Shown in pieces: positions 3,435-63,725 of a stretch of 64,000 nucleotides of DNA. The number at the start of each line of letters is the position of its first letter. Position 1 is the stretch's first letter. Under the pieces are notes generated by a model, which was not told the DNA's origin, made no database searches, and was given only the letters and a program-made list of their open reading frames with translations. Source of the DNA: a virus. Location of the stretch: the IMG/VR virus record IMGVR_UViG_3300032288_003288, one strand, 5' to 3'. A program made the translations under genes and the position numbers.

Positions 3435-3454
3435 ACTATTTACTCCTATGATAT

Positions 3455-3765
3455 TGGGCCCGTTCTGTTCCAAGGTGGAGCCCATACCCGTGAGATCACG
3501 CCGCTAGGCGAGATTCAAGGACACCGTTATCGTTGGCATCTATACGTTGTGACCGCTCGGTCAGCGAATCAGTCTCGAATCTTCCTATTCCGTCCCAGTC
3601 GATCCTAGTTCACCCCCATCATAAGCGCTCAGTGTTGCTGAGAGGAGAATCCCGGTCCTCGGATGTGCAACCATCCTACATACCACTCCTGTTGCAACGC
3701 TTATGGTGGAGGTGGCGGGTACTGCCCCCGCGTCCTCGGAACCTTTATTGTTGATTGTCATCAAC
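3455..3765 (-). ncRNA. ssrA: Two-piece (circularly permuted) tmRNA, alphaproteobacterial type; tag ANDNGVLESRLAA
   Basis: T-arm and 3' acceptor strand GCGGGGGCAGTACCCGCCACCTCCACCA (CCA at 3706-3704) lie upstream of GGGGGTGAACTAGGATCGAC (starts 3617); tag frame 3537-3496 ends LAA-TGA; outer ends approximate. Confidence 0.95.
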
Positions 3766-3774
3766 TGATAGATT

Positions 3775-3805
3775 TATTTATACCAAAATACTTCAAATAT
3801 GTAAA
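3775..3805 (-). promoter_or_regulatory. Composite early-type/late promoter of tmRNA
   Basis: TTTACA-N17-TATAAATA. Confidence 0.75.
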
Positions 3806-3808
3806 TGC

Positions 3809-4246
3809 TTAGTTGCACCAAGATTGCTTGGCATCACCAAAATATGGACGCGCATAGCCGTTGGAGATCAGCTGTTCGCGAAGGCTCTTGCCATCAAGAA
3901 CCACGTCGCCGAGTACACGACCACCAAACTTGTCCCAATCATACAGCACGTACTGTTTCTTGGCAGCTCGAGCAATCAGATCCTTAGTGAAGGCACTTGC
4001 TGCCTGACCTTTGGCATCTTCAGCTGAGCACTTGGCACGAAACCCCTTCTCAGGCGTGTCCACGCCGAATATGCGAATCGCAATCTCCTTCTTAAGAGGA
4101 GCTTGGATCCACAGTGCTTCTACGACGACAGTATCACCGTCTGTAGCTCGTAGAATGTTGGCATCATACGTGACGCCTGTAGGTGTTTTTTGCGCAAACG
4201 CTGGAGTCGCCAGCGCCAACAGCGCAAGAAATGCAAGTTTCTTCAT
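3809..4246 (-). CDS. Thermonuclease (SNase-like) with signal peptide
   Basis: MKKLAFLALLALATPAFA signal; DGDT, IRIFGVDTPE, DKFGGRVLGDV, LISNGYA. Confidence 0.93.
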   Translation of the reverse strand: MKKLAFLALLALATPAFAQKTPTGVTYDANILRATDGDTVVVEALWIQAPLKKEIAIRIFGVDTPEKGFRAKCSAEDAKGQAASAFTKDLIARAAKKQYVLYDWDKFGGRVLGDVVLDGKSLREQLISNGYARPYFGDAKQSWCN

Positions 4247-57965: not shown

Positions 57966-58541
57966 TTAGCTGTTTTCCTTCAACCAATTCAGGATATTTT
58001 CTGGAGAGGTTTCACCATATGGATCAGTCTCACAGTTCCAGGTCTTTCCAGGTTCAACGAACCACTTCTCGATCTTGCCGTTGTTGACGACGCAAGCGTA
58101 ACGCCAAGACCGATATCCGAAGCCAAGATTGAACTTTCCTGTTTCCATACGCATGGCACTCGTAAACTCACTGTTGCCATCAGGAATAACTTTGACCTTC
58201 TTGATCTTCTGATCCTTAGCCCACTTGTTCATGACAAAGGCATCGTTGACGGAGATGCAATAGATGTCCTTGATGCCGAGAGCCTTGAACTCAGAAAACT
58301 TTTCTTCAAAGCCAGGAAGCTGGTATGTAGAACAGGTGGGTGTGAAGGCGCCAGGAAGTGAGAAGAGGACTACGCGCTTACCAGCAAAAAGCTCAAACGT
58401 GGTCACGTCTTGCCAGCGATATGGATTAGATCCACCAATCGACTCATCCCTGATGCGGGTTTTAAACACTACAGAAGGAACTACTTCAGGCAGATCAGTA
58501 TACTCTTCAATTCCCTCTGAAGAAACTAATTTATTATTCAT
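57966..58541 (-). CDS. Peroxiredoxin (Prx5/redoxin type)
   Basis: LPGAFTPTCS, SVNDAFVM..W, DGN.EFT, RSWRYA; start MNNKL. Confidence 0.95.
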   Translation of the reverse strand: MNNKLVSSEGIEEYTDLPEVVPSVVFKTRIRDESIGGSNPYRWQDVTTFELFAGKRVVLFSLPGAFTPTCSTYQLPGFEEKFSEFKALGIKDIYCISVNDAFVMNKWAKDQKIKKVKVIPDGNSEFTSAMRMETGKFNLGFGYRSWRYACVVNNGKIEKWFVEPGKTWNCETDPYGETSPENILNWLKENS

Positions 58542-58548
58542 GATAACC

Positions 58549-58890
58549 TCACTTTTTTTGTTTAAGCCAGTTATTATATAGTAATTTATGTTCCTCTTTG
58601 AGAGGTTTAGATGCATCCACACGAATCATGTTATATCTTCCTTGAGTCTTCATTCTATTGTGGACTATAAAGTTACAATTACTCGGTTTGAGTTCTTCAG
58701 GAAGATCTTCTGTCATCCATGCGCATAGGTATCTTCTACACACTTCAGGGCGTTGATCGTAGATCGCACAACCATGCACCTCTAGTTTGTTTAGAAAGTG
58801 ACATGGCTTTCCTCGATGCATTGGAATTCCATGGATATCGGCGCTCAAAGCTCCTGAACAACAGGCTGTGCACTCACCACACTCTCTCAT
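58549..58890 (-). CDS. YkgJ-like CxxCxxCC zinc/iron-chelating protein
   Basis: CGECTACC, C.FL, C.IY..RP..CR.Y.C.W. Confidence 0.85.
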   Translation of the reverse strand: MRECGECTACCSGALSADIHGIPMHRGKPCHFLNKLEVHGCAIYDQRPEVCRRYLCAWMTEDLPEELKPSNCNFIVHNRMKTQGRYNMIRVDASKPLKEEHKLLYNNWLKQKK

Positions 58891-58902
58891 ATGAATCCTT
58901 TA

Positions 58903-59373
58903 AAGGCGAAGCGGAAGGATTTGGTTATACCTTCAAGACCCAGTCAATTACCTATCGTAATCTCGGTCAACGATCCGTTTGCCGGTTGAGCGGGAGACCA
59001 ATCCCCGGATCTACTTTAGGTCCACTGACAAGGACCTTATTCAGTCACGCTTCTTACACCACCCGTCGGCAGTGATCTTGGATGCCCTGTGGGATCCTCC
59101 CCCACGTACCCCTGAATGCAGGGGATCTTAGTCTAACTGCACGACGACCGTGTCCCAGATCAAGGGCAAATTTGGCCCGCCCTATGTCCGCCGGGCTCCA
59201 GCAGACATTCATCTCGCTCTGACCGACGGGCAATCAGAGTCATATCCTATCATTACTGAGACCACGAGGCGATAGGATACCGGCGCGGAATATGCGGGTT
59301 AAGCAGTTCAAGTTCAAAGACTCTCATAGTGTGCCTTGTCAAGGCAGTTGCAACTACCTTTAACTTCCCGCAT
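58903..59373 (-). ncRNA. Large structured RNA, GOLLD-like
   Basis: ~470 nt without a credible ORF, immediately 3' of tRNA-Asn, dense short- and long-range pairings; family assignment from context and recollection only. Confidence 0.7.
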
Positions 59374-59379
59374 CTAAAA

Positions 59380-59454
59380 TGGCTCCGGCGGTAGGATTCG
59401 AACCTACGACCACTCGATTAACAGTCGAGGGCTCTACCGCTGAGCTACACCGGA
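59380..59454 (-). tRNA. tRNA-Asn(GTT)
   Basis: TCCGGTGTAGCTCAGCGGTAGAGC-CCTCGA-CTGTTAA-TCGAG...GGTTCGAATCC...GGAGCCA. Confidence 0.97.
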
Positions 59455-59505
59455 ATAACTTATGTATTCTATATATACTGTGTTTTAGGATATGTACATG
59501 TATTT

Positions 59506-59589
59506 TGGTAGGGACGGCGGGACTCGAACCCGCAAGGATTTACCGAGGCATTTTAAGTGCCTTGCGTTTACCGATTTCGCCACGTCCCC
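59506..59589 (-). tRNA. tRNA-Leu(TAA)
   Basis: GGGGACGTGGCGAAATCGGTAAACGC-AAGGCA-CTTAAAA-TGCCT, variable arm, GGGTTCGAGTCCC, encoded CCA. Confidence 0.97.
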
Positions 59590-59595
59590 AAAAGG

Positions 59596-59781
59596 TTACT
59601 TGACGGGCGTAGTCGTCTCCACAAAGTCACAGACCAGCTGGAAAAACTCGTCTTCGTCTTCTGACTCCATTCGCATGAGCTTGTCACGAACGTTTTCGGT
59701 TACACCATGAACATAGAAGTAGTGAGCAATAGCACGCTCCACTGTGGGCATGCCAAAGTATTCAATCGTATTGCTCTTCAT
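59596..59781 (-). CDS. Hypothetical protein
   Basis: Coupled early ORF. Confidence 0.65.
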   Translation of the reverse strand: MKSNTIEYFGMPTVERAIAHYFYVHGVTENVRDKLMRMESEDEDEFFQLVCDFVETTTPVK

Positions 59782-59984
59782 TACATGTCCTCCAGAAGAT
59801 CGATGATACGAGAGATGATTTCTTCGAAGTCATCATCAGGATGATAGCCGCAGTCAATGACCACGTCGTTATACATTTCCTGAATGTAGTCGCGGATCTC
59901 GACGCCATGAACGCCTGTGATGGCCTCATAGACAAATTCAAAAGGATCGTCCTGTGCAAGGATCATCTCATTCACACCAGTCAT
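59781..59984 (-). CDS. Acidic hypothetical protein
   Basis: Coupled early ORF; HPDDDFEEI. Confidence 0.65.
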   Translation of the reverse strand: MTGVNEMILAQDDPFEFVYEAITGVHGVEIRDYIQEMYNDVVIDCGYHPDDDFEEIISRIIDLLEDM

Positions 59985-60196
59985 TATATATACCTCGCTT
60001 CCAAATCAGTTTCAGTAAAAGCTGCCACCACGTCTACATAGTGATCGTCTTCGTAGTAGCGTAGCATCATGCCGCGTTCTTTGGCTTCACGACAGAAGGC
60101 TTCGACGCGCTCTAGTGCCAGTTCAGGATTTTCCCTAATCCAGCTCTTGTACATGTGCTTCTGAGCGCACGAAGCCATGGGAGAAATCTGAGACAT
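59984..60196 (-). CDS. Hypothetical protein
   Basis: Coupled early ORF. Confidence 0.65.
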   Translation of the reverse strand: MSQISPMASCAQKHMYKSWIRENPELALERVEAFCREAKERGMMLRYYEDDHYVDVVAAFTETDLEARYI

Positions 60197-60474
60197 TATG
60201 CAACTCTCTTCTGAATAGCAATATCGCGGAACGTCACCACGAACTTCATCATCTCCAGCGACGTATCAGCCAGTCGAGCGATCGAGTACTTGGAAGGTGA
60301 CTTTTCATTGTAGAACTGAACATAGATCCAATCGATCAGGTCGTCAGCTGCGTTGTAGTCCTTCATGATCTTGACAACTTCGCCACGAATGGTGCCTGCG
60401 GCAGACTCATAACGAACGCGGTCGCCGATGAGGATCGTCTTGGGATAAGCCATGTTTTCTTCCTTCTTCATCAT
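60196..60474 (-). CDS. Hypothetical protein (SH3-like)
   Basis: IGDRVRY.S.AG..RGEV; alternative start 60453. Confidence 0.7.
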   Translation of the reverse strand: MMKKEENMAYPKTILIGDRVRYESAAGTIRGEVVKIMKDYNAADDLIDWIYVQFYNEKSPSKYSIARLADTSLEMMKFVVTFRDIAIQKRVA

Positions 60475-60480
60475 AGGTCC

Positions 60481-60509
60481 ACCTTACCCCATAATGGAGA
60501 ATATGTACA
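60481..60509 (-). promoter_or_regulatory. Phage early-type promoter
   Basis: TGTACA-N17-TAAGGT-GGACCT-ATG. Confidence 0.78.
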
Positions 60510-60533
60510 TGCCCTTTTTTAATTAAAATGAAA

Positions 60534-62579
60534 TTATTTTGAGGAGGCCCTGTAGACCCCGTCCCAGTTGGCCGGCGGGCTGTCCTGGAGCTCCCTGATG
60601 CGAGCTTCCATCATCTTATAGTAGTCTTTTAAGGCCCCTGCCCAAACGTGTTTCATGACAACAGCCATGTTTAGAGCTCTGTCCCATTCACCTTGTCTGT
60701 AGGCATCAAGGAATCGGAAGTGAGCAATTTCAGAGCTCTTGTCAATCTTTCCTAAAACGGTATAGATTCGGGCCGGTTCGGTCTTGCCTTTGACAGCTAT
60801 AAGATCTAGCTCTACGACCTGATACTTTGCTCTTACATACTCGGCGGTTTTTGGCCCAATAATGATTTTAACCCCGTAAGGTTTGGATTGTCCTTCCAGT
60901 CTCGAGGCGAGATTAACCCCGTCGCCAAGACAAGTATAGTCAAACCGCTGAGTAGAACCCATATTGCCAACCACAACGGTGTCAGTATTAATGCCAAGAC
61001 CCATGCCAAAAGCAGGAATGCCTTCTTGAGATATCTCTTCATTGAATTTCTCCAAGTCTTTAAGCATCGCCAGACTAGTCTTGACGGCGTTCAGCGCATG
61101 CTCCTCGTCGTCAAGCGGAGCATTCCAAAATGCCATCTGAGCGTCGCCTATATACTTATCTAGCGTGCCGTTATTTTCTATGATTCTAGAGGTCATGGCA
61201 GTCATGTAGCGGTTCATGATCTTTGTCAGACCTTGAACGTCCTTGCCATAGTGCTCTGAGATTGTGGTAAATCCACGTACGTCTGTGAACATGATAGACA
61301 GCTCACGGGACTCTCCGCCGAGCGTCAACAACTCTGGATTTTTTTGTAGCTTCTCTACCATTGCTGGTGAAAGATACGTACCAAACTGCTTCTTGATCTG
61401 CATCTTCTGCATGTATTCAGAGATGTACTTGGCAGTAAAGATGTGTACGTAGATCAGTATAGCTGCAGCAAAATTAAAAGTGACGTCTAGCAGAATATTC
61501 TTGCTGCCAAACAGATAGAAAGGTATGTACATATAGGCAGACAGGAGTATAATGATATATATCCAGGAAAACCTAAATCTAGACAACACTATCAGCGCCA
61601 GCGCGAGGAATACGAATGAGCCAAGATCCACCAAAGGAATCCAATTTGGAATCGACGCAGATTCACCATTCAGAAGAGTCTCTAGAATGCTGGCCTGGAG
61701 TTGATGGGGATTCTGCGCACCTGAGGGAGTCGCTACAGGGTTCGCGATACCAGCAGCAGTTACGCCAACTATCACTATTTTACCACTCAGGTCTGGTAAA
61801 GGACCCTCACCAATTTCGATTGACTGAAATCGAAAGTTCGGATTGATAAAGATCCGACCATACTCATCCGTCTTAATTGTTTCATATGAAGGAACTCGTA
61901 ATGCTTCAACACCCGTCACATTCACTTTCGCCTGATACGAGGGATCTCCCGCAGCTACTCGAAGCATTTCTAAAGCAAACGCTGGATAGTATTCACTGCC
62001 TGAAGTCGCAAGAAGAGGAACTCTCCGAACGACTCCATCTGATTCGGGAAGAGTCGAAGTTACTCCAACACCAACTGCGGCTTGCTGAAGAACTTCAACA
62101 TTTGATATTACGCAAGGATAATCCGGTAGATAGTCGGTGGCCTGACCATCTCCAATCACCGCAACGCCAATCGTTCGAGGATTGCGGGTTTCTTTACTTG
62201 GACACGATGGCAGAGTCGTCTGTGATAAAACTACCGGAGCGCTTCTGAAACTGCCTGCAAGTTCTTTGTCACCTCCGAAACGATCGGGATCAGGATAAAG
62301 AATAGTAGTGCCGACGAGACCAGCGCCAGCAGAATACAGGTCTGAATGAATCTTGACATATGTACCTCGGGGAAATGGATATTGACCGTACGTCTCAATC
62401 GCCTTTTCGCCGATGTTTGCCAAGACAATCTGTTCAGACTGCTTAGAATTATCTAACATGAGGAAGTCATAAAACTTCAGTCTAGTAGCTTCTACTAGAT
62501 ATGGATCAAGCAGCTTCACCGCCAAAAGTAGCGTGAATGTAAGGACTGCCATCCAAGGTGAAAGTACTATCTTTTTCAT
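60534..62579 (-). CDS. CHASE2-domain class III adenylate cyclase
   Basis: N-terminal TM; CHASE2 (G.YPFPR, DGVVRRVPL, GKIVIVG); 3 TM; MFTDVRGFT.ISE, DKYIGDA, VVGNMGS..RFDYT.LGD.VNLASRLE, VKGK. Confidence 0.95.
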   Translation of the reverse strand: MKKIVLSPWMAVLTFTLLLAVKLLDPYLVEATRLKFYDFLMLDNSKQSEQIVLANIGEKAIETYGQYPFPRGTYVKIHSDLYSAGAGLVGTTILYPDPDRFGGDKELAGSFRSAPVVLSQTTLPSCPSKETRNPRTIGVAVIGDGQATDYLPDYPCVISNVEVLQQAAVGVGVTSTLPESDGVVRRVPLLATSGSEYYPAFALEMLRVAAGDPSYQAKVNVTGVEALRVPSYETIKTDEYGRIFINPNFRFQSIEIGEGPLPDLSGKIVIVGVTAAGIANPVATPSGAQNPHQLQASILETLLNGESASIPNWIPLVDLGSFVFLALALIVLSRFRFSWIYIIILLSAYMYIPFYLFGSKNILLDVTFNFAAAILIYVHIFTAKYISEYMQKMQIKKQFGTYLSPAMVEKLQKNPELLTLGGESRELSIMFTDVRGFTTISEHYGKDVQGLTKIMNRYMTAMTSRIIENNGTLDKYIGDAQMAFWNAPLDDEEHALNAVKTSLAMLKDLEKFNEEISQEGIPAFGMGLGINTDTVVVGNMGSTQRFDYTCLGDGVNLASRLEGQSKPYGVKIIIGPKTAEYVRAKYQVVELDLIAVKGKTEPARIYTVLGKIDKSSEIAHFRFLDAYRQGEWDRALNMAVVMKHVWAGALKDYYKMMEARIRELQDSPPANWDGVYRASSK

Positions 62580-62582
62580 GGC

Positions 62583-63725
62583 CTATTTATTAGATTGCCA
62601 TATCGTTATGCTGCCCTGTGATCTGCCCATGCCTGAAGTAGGCCACTTATGGTCAGCAAAGTTGAAGTAGTCTATCAGTCCATTCTGAACAACGATGATC
62701 TCTGTGTCTGTAGTCTTTTCTAAAAAGATGGTGGTCAGTTGACCGGCATCTTGTGACAAGCTAGAGTAGACCCAACCAACTTGCACCTGTTTCTCTAGAT
62801 ACGGTGAAACGTTTGTCTGCAGAGTAGCTACTAATTCTTTTTCAGGATTAAACTCTTTGAAGATCTGATACAGTTCGTCTTGAGTGGGAGGTTGCTGAAT
62901 GATTACAGCCACCTGTTCTATAGAAGCTCCTACGTCCGGATCTTGATTGTCGTCTGCCGCTGCTGCAGCAGGATTGGTGCTCTTTTTGAGATCTCTGCGT
63001 GCTCGACCGATGACACTTTCTCCTGAATCACTAGCAGGCGCCGAGATTTGGAGGTTATTGTCAAGCTGCTTCATGGTCATGTTGACGGTGGTAGGCGGAG
63101 ACGGAGGGACGAACGAGCTCTCGACGACGGTCGCCTGAAACGGCTGATTCATTGTCACCACTCCGCTTGCAGTGATCACCTCGATCTCTCCGACCTCGCA
63201 GTCGTTCGTGTCTTTGAACATGTCTGCGTCGTCGAAGCACGCTGGCAACAGAACGACCATGGTCCTTCCAGCCTCGTCGACTGACATGACAAAGTCTGTG
63301 CCTCTAACTCCGATGGTGGCTGTAGGCGTTCTAATGTTGACACCCTTTGTATTGCCATGAGCGATGCCTCCAGACGCATAGCGAACTGTGCCTAAAGCTA
63401 CTTTGAGCCCTAGTCGACCTTTTGCTTTTGCATTTCCGTCGAATACAAAGTCATCGATGACGAGTCTAGAGTTCTCAGTGATATTAACGTTGGTAGAATC
63501 AACAAACGTAATCCTAAAACGTCCTTGAGAAGTCGTAGAAATTGTATCGTTCTTTTCTATCCCAGATCCTCTTGCCGCTGGCATAGTTCTTGCGGCCCGT
63601 TTTATGGAGCCAGCGCCTTTAAACTCTGTTATCGACCCGATTGATGCCATCGCAGGAGTCGATAACGCGAGTAGACTAATTAACAGTAGTAGACTAATTA
63701 ACAGTAGTAATGTTATACGTGCCAT
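62583..63725 (-). CDS. FecR-domain periplasmic protein
   Basis: Signal peptide; D.I.T, ITF.D...V.ITENS.LVID, IRTPTATIGVRGTDF, GEIEV. Confidence 0.9.
   Translation of the reverse strand: MARITLLLLISLLLLISLLALSTPAMASIGSITEFKGAGSIKRAARTMPAARGSGIEKNDTISTTSQGRFRITFVDSTNVNITENSRLVIDDFVFDGNAKAKGRLGLKVALGTVRYASGGIAHGNTKGVNIRTPTATIGVRGTDFVMSVDEAGRTMVVLLPACFDDADMFKDTNDCEVGEIEVITASGVVTMNQPFQATVVESSFVPPSPPTTVNMTMKQLDNNLQISAPASDSGESVIGRARRDLKKSTNPAAAAADDNQDPDVGASIEQVAVIIQQPPTQDELYQIFKEFNPEKELVATLQTNVSPYLEKQVQVGWVYSSLSQDAGQLTTIFLEKTTDTEIIVVQNGLIDYFNFADHKWPTSGMGRSQGSITIWQSNK
63670..63705. repeat. Perfect 18-bp tandem duplication
   Basis: AGTAGACTAATTAACAGT x2, encoding LLISLL twice in the FecR signal peptide. 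Confidence 0.9.

Follow-up and report, generated by a model that had tools for sequence, protein, structure and literature searches.

The non-coding stretch of about 470 nt that follows a tRNA-Asn gene on the minus strand of the viral record IMGVR_UViG_3300032288_003288 is, judging from its sequence, a composite, in which an uncatalogued RNA of about 200 bases, here called motif A, precedes a manA RNA of the short kind. We consider it probable that the two form a tandem of unrelated, independently conserved minus-strand RNAs downstream of tRNA-Leu and tRNA-Asn and are released as free RNAs. The initial annotation had described one ornate RNA, either a compact GOLLD variant or a new large non-coding RNA processed together with the tRNAs. 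Its observation was largely right, and its interpretation as a single GOLLD-like RNA was wrong. The proposal of a new RNA holds for the 5' 200 nt, which form a new conserved structured RNA, and fails for the 3' 171 nt, which are the known manA. The manA RNA itself has been described before; motif A is absent from Rfam 15.

The window, that is, the whole stretch of 64,000 nt that was analysed, encodes a gp43-type DNA polymerase, UvsX, a DnaB-like helicase, NrdA and an endolysin, and by this gene content it belongs to a T4-like phage that has not been cultured. The contig that contains it is about 158.5 kb long. Nine T4 late-promoter boxes TATAAATA were counted in the window against 1.4 expected. 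The DNA polymerase is at most 52% identical to that of any cultured phage, the nearest being those of T4-like cyanophages, and at the DNA level only tRNA matches to cultured phages were obtained. A two-piece (permuted) tmRNA of the alphaproteobacterial type is encoded at 3453-3809 on the minus strand (RF01849, 100 bits; RF04321, 97 bits), and its type hints at an alphaproteobacterial host. Permuted tmRNAs are also present within or beside tRNA arrays in three related contigs (L001, L018 and L026), and in L018 and L026 the tmRNA is followed by manA 216 nt further on. Upstream of the RNA cluster, at 60534-63725 on the minus strand, the window carries genes for a CHASE2-adenylate/guanylate cyclase of 681 aa and for a FecR-domain protein of 380 aa, and downstream of the cluster a redoxin-family gene and an outer-membrane beta-barrel gene, all of them unusual cargo for a T4-like phage. 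The features of the locus are as follows.

59506..59589, minus strand: tRNA-Leu (UAA), called by ARAGORN, Rfam tRNA 61.9 bits; first gene of the small RNA cluster
59380..59454, minus strand: tRNA-Asn (GUU) with encoded CCA, called by ARAGORN, Rfam tRNA 71.6 bits
59174..59373, minus strand: motif A, an uncatalogued structured RNA of about 200 nt with 12 distinct homologues, covariation and no Rfam match
59373-59367 / 59298-59292, minus strand: motif A, predicted stem P1
59279-59271 / 59251-59243, minus strand: motif A, predicted stem P2
59239-59234 / 59222-59217, minus strand: motif A, predicted stem P3, with the invariant loop UUGCCCGUCGG at 59233-59223
59208-59198 / 59194-59184, minus strand: motif A, predicted stem P4
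59186-59174, minus strand: motif A, invariant tail CAUAGGGCGGGCC
59075..59173, minus strand: linker B, about 100 nt with local hairpins, homologue not detected
58904..59074, minus strand: manA RNA, short subtype (RF01745; score 55.3 bits, cut-off 55.2; E=2e-11; full model, positions 1-192)
58549..58890, minus strand: downstream gene for a 113-aa CxxCxxCC-type protein, from the ORF list, with a weak Pfam PF03692 match

Motif A starts 6 nt downstream of the CCA of tRNA-Asn, in agreement with the earlier statement that the RNA begins a few bases after this tRNA, and the T4-like genes of the window likewise bear out its placement as a phage-encoded RNA beside tRNA genes. No credible ORF was found in the stretch of about 475 nt between tRNA-Asn and the ATG at 58890, and no promoter or terminator signals were found in 58300-60600, so that none separates the tRNAs, the RNAs and the gene. 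Relatives of the CxxCxxCC gene lie inside tRNA arrays in L001 and L010, with many tRNAs on either side; the relatives of its protein were distant only (31-44% identity), and neither motif A nor manA was found with any of them.

Motif A is, as far as comparison of sequences goes, a real and uncatalogued family of phage RNAs, and it is the new part of the locus. The folding energy departs only modestly from that of shuffled sequences, with z values of -2.3 (whole stretch), -2.2 (5' 305 nt) and -1.8 (antisense of the 5' 305 nt), and because thermodynamics alone proves little at such modest values, the case rests on homologues. A first search with a 19-mer of the window around the loop returned two IMG/VR contigs. 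The second search used a two-block pattern, TGCCCGTCGG ... CATAGGGCGGGCC, whose blocks are common to the window and those two contigs, and matched 7 IMG/VR, 9 metagenome and 1 MAG stretches. The match in L042 was a false one in GC-rich coding sequence and was removed, and after dropping it and the duplicates, 12 distinct sequences constitute motif A. The core common to all copies runs from P3, whose invariant loop is (U/C)UGCCCGUCGG, through an A-rich linker and a P4 closed by AUG/CAU to the invariant tail CAUAGGGCGGGCC, and the copy in the window has every element, namely P1, P2, P3 with its loop, the AUG...CAU P4 and the tail.

The covariation among these copies argues for a conserved fold. 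On a model-based alignment, 92% of the cells of P3 and P4 were paired, with double changes in 8 of the 11 pairs; none of 500 shuffles paired as well, and the slid controls fell to 20-46% paired. All six pairs of P3 show double changes, and eight G-U cells fix the strand. The 5' domain varies by clade, with the closing stem P1 and the long hairpin P2 always formed. P1 reads AUGCGGG/CCCGCAU in the window and AUUGUCG/CGACAAU in L028, which amounts to four double changes in seven pairs, the window arms UAUCCUAUC/GAUAGGAUA correspond to UAUUCUAUC/GAUAGAAUA of L028, and P1 and P2 also covary in the cpn10-linked clade. The motif A model R1 gives the window 63.6 bits, a match by construction since the window is in the seed alignment; the motif A model had 0 matches in 561 kb of control DNA from unrelated phage loci. 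The Rfam 15 families did not match the window copy or six homologues at E<=1-10, and a literature search for the invariant sequences returned unrelated primers only. ARAGORN at an 80% threshold called the P1 domain a tRNA-Val, which was treated as a false positive because the homologue L028 is without that arm.

The loop segment GCCCG can pair with CGGGC of the tail, and a putative H-type pseudoknot is therefore possible. As both partners are invariant, covariation gives no signal either way, and their invariance is partly built in, both having been required by the search pattern. The invariant loop and tail were also considered as a copy or antisense of E. coli 16S, 23S or 5S rRNA, with nothing beyond chance, and no further targets of the invariants were found within the window. 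Pistol-type RNAs have a hairpin loop that pairs with a 3' strand, an A-rich linker, an intervening hairpin and many invariant nucleotides, a topology that motif A may resemble. Motif A nevertheless has no match to the Rfam Pistol family, its conserved nucleotides differ, and a cleavage site was not identified. It seems to us improbable that the core of motif A is a small catalytic RNA, such as a self-cleaving ribozyme that cuts the array, or a ligand-binding RNA of the riboswitch aptamer kind. The hairpin-loop-to-3'-tail pairing, itself putative, is a pattern of such RNAs, about 23 invariant nucleotides in loop and tail stand beside freely covarying stems, and motif A occurs both in tRNA arrays and before a gene; this is set against the absence of any match to Rfam ribozymes and riboswitches at E<=10 and the fact that neither a cleavage site nor a ligand can be proposed.

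By its match to the Rfam model and to other copies, the 3' part of the stretch (171 nt) is a short-subtype manA RNA. It reaches the gathering score over the full model, with a borderline value (55.3 against 55.2 bits). What counts against the manA label is precisely that the score lies only at the Rfam cut-off and that the P6/P7 part is missing. Relatives were collected with a pattern made from two conserved manA blocks, which gave 12 IMG/VR loci; each of them scored as manA, with 58-73 bits, and the window copy is 75-84% identical to phage-contig copies in this range of scores. RNAalifold on 11 phage manA copies including the window showed compensatory (double) changes in 29 of 47 pairs, and the window conforms to the consensus in P1, P2, P3, P4, P5, P8 and P9. 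Within the inner three-hairpin domain of the model (P5, P6 with a GNRA loop, and P7), the P6/P7 positions are mostly deleted and of low posterior probability, as they are in all short-type relatives. In the window copy, the first hairpin carries a CGACGG loop, the junction is GUGACUGAAUAA and the terminal hairpin is GAAGG-UAUAACCAAAU-CCUUC; the junction and the GGUAUA...AAUCC of the terminal hairpin, on which the search pattern for relatives was built, are both exact, and the UUGG and AACCG loops form a candidate kissing pair.

In its match to the full model, its GACG-type first loop, its GUGACUGAAUAA junction, its UAAAGU segment, its UGGU and AACC loops that could kiss and its GGUAUA...AAUCC terminal hairpin, the 3' part resembles the described manA RNAs (RF01745; PMC2864571; 10.64898/2026.07.01.735769), and, as with those, its place is directly before a gene of a marine phage of the T4 type. 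It differs from typical manA in having 171 nt against 192 model positions, with P6/P7 largely missing and the score at the cut-off, and from other manA in being preceded by another structured RNA. The short subtype lies at the end of, or within, tRNA arrays, where the long type is seldom found.

Every hairpin arm named in the initial annotation was present in the sequence by an inverted-repeat listing. Of these, ATGCGGG/CCCGCAT (59373-59367 / 59298-59292), TATCCTATC/GATAGGATA (59279-59271 / 59251-59243) and ATGTCTGC.../...GCGGACAT (59208-59184) show compensatory changes in the homologues of motif A, AGGTCC/GGACCT (GGTCC/GGACC) is P3 of manA and covaries, and GAAGG...CCTTC is the manA terminal hairpin and covaries as well. 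Among the homologues collected here, as had been suggested, the helices of both RNAs covary. The long-range helix GCCCGTCGG/CCGACGGGT fared differently: its eight Watson-Crick pairs exist, but two complementary 8-mers between the spacer and manA arose in 18% of 2000 dinucleotide shuffles (P=0.18), and its arms belong to other hairpins. The first arm is the loop of the P3 hairpin of motif A (CUCUGA/UCAGAG, 59239-59217), which had been missed, and the second is the first manA hairpin, which is backed by covariation, so that the structures compete.

These results bear on the reading that motif A, the spacer and manA fold together as one ornate RNA of about 470 nt, be it a GOLLD-like particle or a capped manA protomer, which we regard as very improbable. 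In such a fold, the motif A loop GCCCGUCGG would dock on the manA first-hairpin loop CCGACGGG, and UGACAAGG would dock on the manA P3 loop CCUUGUCA. The 5' part does contain two perfect 8-nt complementarities to two manA hairpin loops, a number within chance by the shuffles above. The CGACGG loop that most short-type manA copies share is exactly complementary to the invariant CCGUCG of motif A, and the two RNAs are neighbours again in L034, but the complementarity there is only 6 nt. The second docking site falls within an insertion that L028, the nearest homologue, does not have, and the spacer is unconserved. The covariance models of GOLLD and ROOL, the check that had been proposed for the family label, gave no match even at E<=10, either over 1.3 kb (58400-59700) or over 309 nt (59070-59378), and with neither family detectable the idea of a compact GOLLD variant was abandoned. 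The stretch consists of two structured parts, each of which is found elsewhere without the other: motif A was present without manA on contigs of 22-96 kb, the contigs checked for co-occurrence being 12-57% complete, model R1 did not match on five manA contigs, and the two are adjacent only in the window and in L034. Motif A and manA usually lie apart and occur independently, and therefore do not behave as one RNA or as a single large RNA of the GOLLD type. The same complementarity could make them partner RNAs, in which the invariant loop CCGUCGG kisses the CGACGG loop of the first manA hairpin (8-9 bp here). We treat this as a long shot; if true, motif A would be a further phage RNA that caps, loads or regulates the cage formed by manA, giving a hetero-RNA assembly from a tRNA-cluster transcript.

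Linker B, which lies between the two RNAs, appears to be a lineage-specific, unconserved spacer, and had no blastn match in any fetched locus. A decayed tRNA found no support from Rfam (no tRNA or other hit at E<=10 on 309 nt), from ARAGORN (nothing there down to a 70% threshold) or from an HMM of 84 phage tRNAs, which gave nothing there at E<=100 and found both real tRNAs. Its 3' end, ...AGGGCAUCCA-AGAUCA, resembles the junction of tRNA-CCA, (G/A)AUAUCA and manA in L017, L022 and L023, a resemblance at most suggestive of a lost tRNA. A second, tandem manA in the spacer was not found with Rfam at E<=10. The spacer was also rejected as coding sequence, since it has stops in all frames and is unlike the 121-aa ORF at the same position in L016 (3560-3925), where that ORF is inserted between the tRNA and manA. 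Neither blastn nor model R1 showed homology to the spacers of L015, L020 and L021. In those three loci, a non-coding spacer of 235-250 nt runs from a tRNA-Asn-like gene to manA (L015:1448-1697, L020:12892-13124, L021:5429-5674); it is 86-92% identical among the three, every reading frame is interrupted by stops, no Rfam family matches it at gathering, and it falls outside motif A. It may be another array-resident RNA.

The genomic context of the relatives carries the argument from conserved structure to free RNAs. In 8 of 9 distinct loci, a tRNA or tmRNA on the same strand lies no more than 450 nt upstream of short-type manA. Long-type manA is very common in IMG/VR (at least 120 exact pattern matches), and among the matches listed (L044-L123) 3 of 80 have a tRNA within 500 nt. 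The tRNA-array habit is, in these loci, specific to the short subtype. The manA of L034 lies between tRNA-Pro and tRNA-Leu; in L017, L022 and L023 a tRNA is followed after 9 nt by manA, with motif A absent, and elsewhere manA comes after other spacers, an ORF or a permuted tmRNA. In the preprint on manA (10.64898/2026.07.01.735769), the word tRNA occurs 0 times, and the placement of manA in tRNA arrays is absent there. For motif A, 6 of the 12 sequences have tRNAs on the same strand at a distance of up to 1.5 kb; in L032 it is flanked by tRNA-Pro on one side and tRNA-Gly on the other, in L040 an intrinsic terminator follows, and in L028 an 11/12 sigma-70 promoter lies upstream. Between motif A and the next tRNA in L031 (1903-2297) and L033 (1425-1822), both on the minus strand, further hairpins are common to both loci and differ in a compensatory manner, for example CCUGCA...UGUAGG versus CCUACU...AGUAGG, which points to either a longer RNA at this place or an additional structured one.

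Two sets of downstream genes count against free RNAs, or at the least suit another reading as well. The manA of the window ends 13 nt before the ATG of the 113-aa ORF, a 5'-UTR position, and 9 of the 11 short-type loci have an ORF that begins 13-29 nt after manA; this arrangement fits the classical leader reading equally well, and the first description of manA was that of a candidate riboswitch in 5' UTRs (PMC2864571). In 5 of 12 sequences, some 30 nt separate motif A from a cpn10 gene downstream (L029, L030, L034, L037 and L038), the gene encoding a Cpn10/GroES-type co-chaperonin (PF00166, E=2e-11 for L034), and it could have a cis-regulatory role there; for manA RNAs, the chaperone gene ibpA has been reported as a frequent downstream neighbour (Weinberg et al. 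2010, PMC2864571). It is thus conceivable, if unlikely, that manA, with or without motif A, is a 5' UTR that controls translation of the CxxCxxCC gene, and that motif A does likewise for cpn10 elsewhere. The mechanism, for which we hold out just as modest a prospect, would be a switch in which the last hairpin of manA gives way to another pairing, one that masks the ribosome-binding site, and vice versa; the site, AAGGAUU (58900-58894), is complementary over 7 nt to AAUCCUU in that hairpin (58921-58915). Such a match carries little weight, given that the arms of the hairpin resemble SD or anti-SD sequences in any case. The ORFs after short-type manA are heterogeneous (113, 95, 170, about 200 and 488 aa), and in L016, L017 and L023 the late-promoter box TATAAATA stands between manA and the ATG of a conserved 95-aa ORF, which together weaken the reading as a dedicated riboswitch, though manA may still serve as a leader. 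Moreover, tRNAs and not mRNAs follow the manA of L034 and the motif A of L032, and a terminator ends the motif A of L040.

Free RNAs cut from a tRNA transcript are the likeliest mechanism, and the basis for it is genomic context: short-type manA and motif A often sit in tRNA arrays, and the L040 terminator and the L028 promoter favour the same reading. From this context we infer that the genes are co-transcribed, where processing occurs and where the RNAs end. Both tRNAs would share one transcript with motif A and manA, as proposed because promoter or terminator signals separating them are absent, and the nucleases that trim tRNAs would then release motif A and manA as free folded RNAs. The release is modelled on the relatives in which either RNA lies flush between two tRNAs. 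Once motif A is released, the invariant loop and tail would be the parts by which it acts. The tRNA cluster of phage T4 offers a parallel, as its species 1 and 2 (rnaC/rnaD) are stable non-tRNA RNAs made from the same precursor transcripts as the tRNAs. These RNAs are smaller, about 120-140 nt, and they are not known to carry the motifs of motif A or manA.

GOLLD (RF01998) and ROOL (RF03087) are likewise phage-encoded and lie beside tRNA genes; both form RNA-only cages and both are found near phage tRNA islands (PMC12286853). Members of the manA family are reported to form RNA-only cages as well, and in vitro kissing-loop pentamers of manA reportedly assemble into decamers and a 60-mer cage (10.64898/2026.07.01.735769). 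Unlike GOLLD and ROOL, to which there is no detectable similarity in sequence or structure, the RNAs described here are two separable modules of 200 nt and 171 nt, compared with more than 500-800 nt. Even so, short manA behaves genomically like GOLLD and ROOL, since it resides in tRNA clusters of phages and in some cases abuts a tRNA on either side, and this is a concrete setting for asking what manA cages do. Motif A adds a further uncatalogued folded RNA to the phage tRNA-array niche, and its conserved loop and tail are easy targets for mutagenesis, binding and cleavage assays. In this phage, motif A and manA are adjacent, and their conserved loops are complementary.
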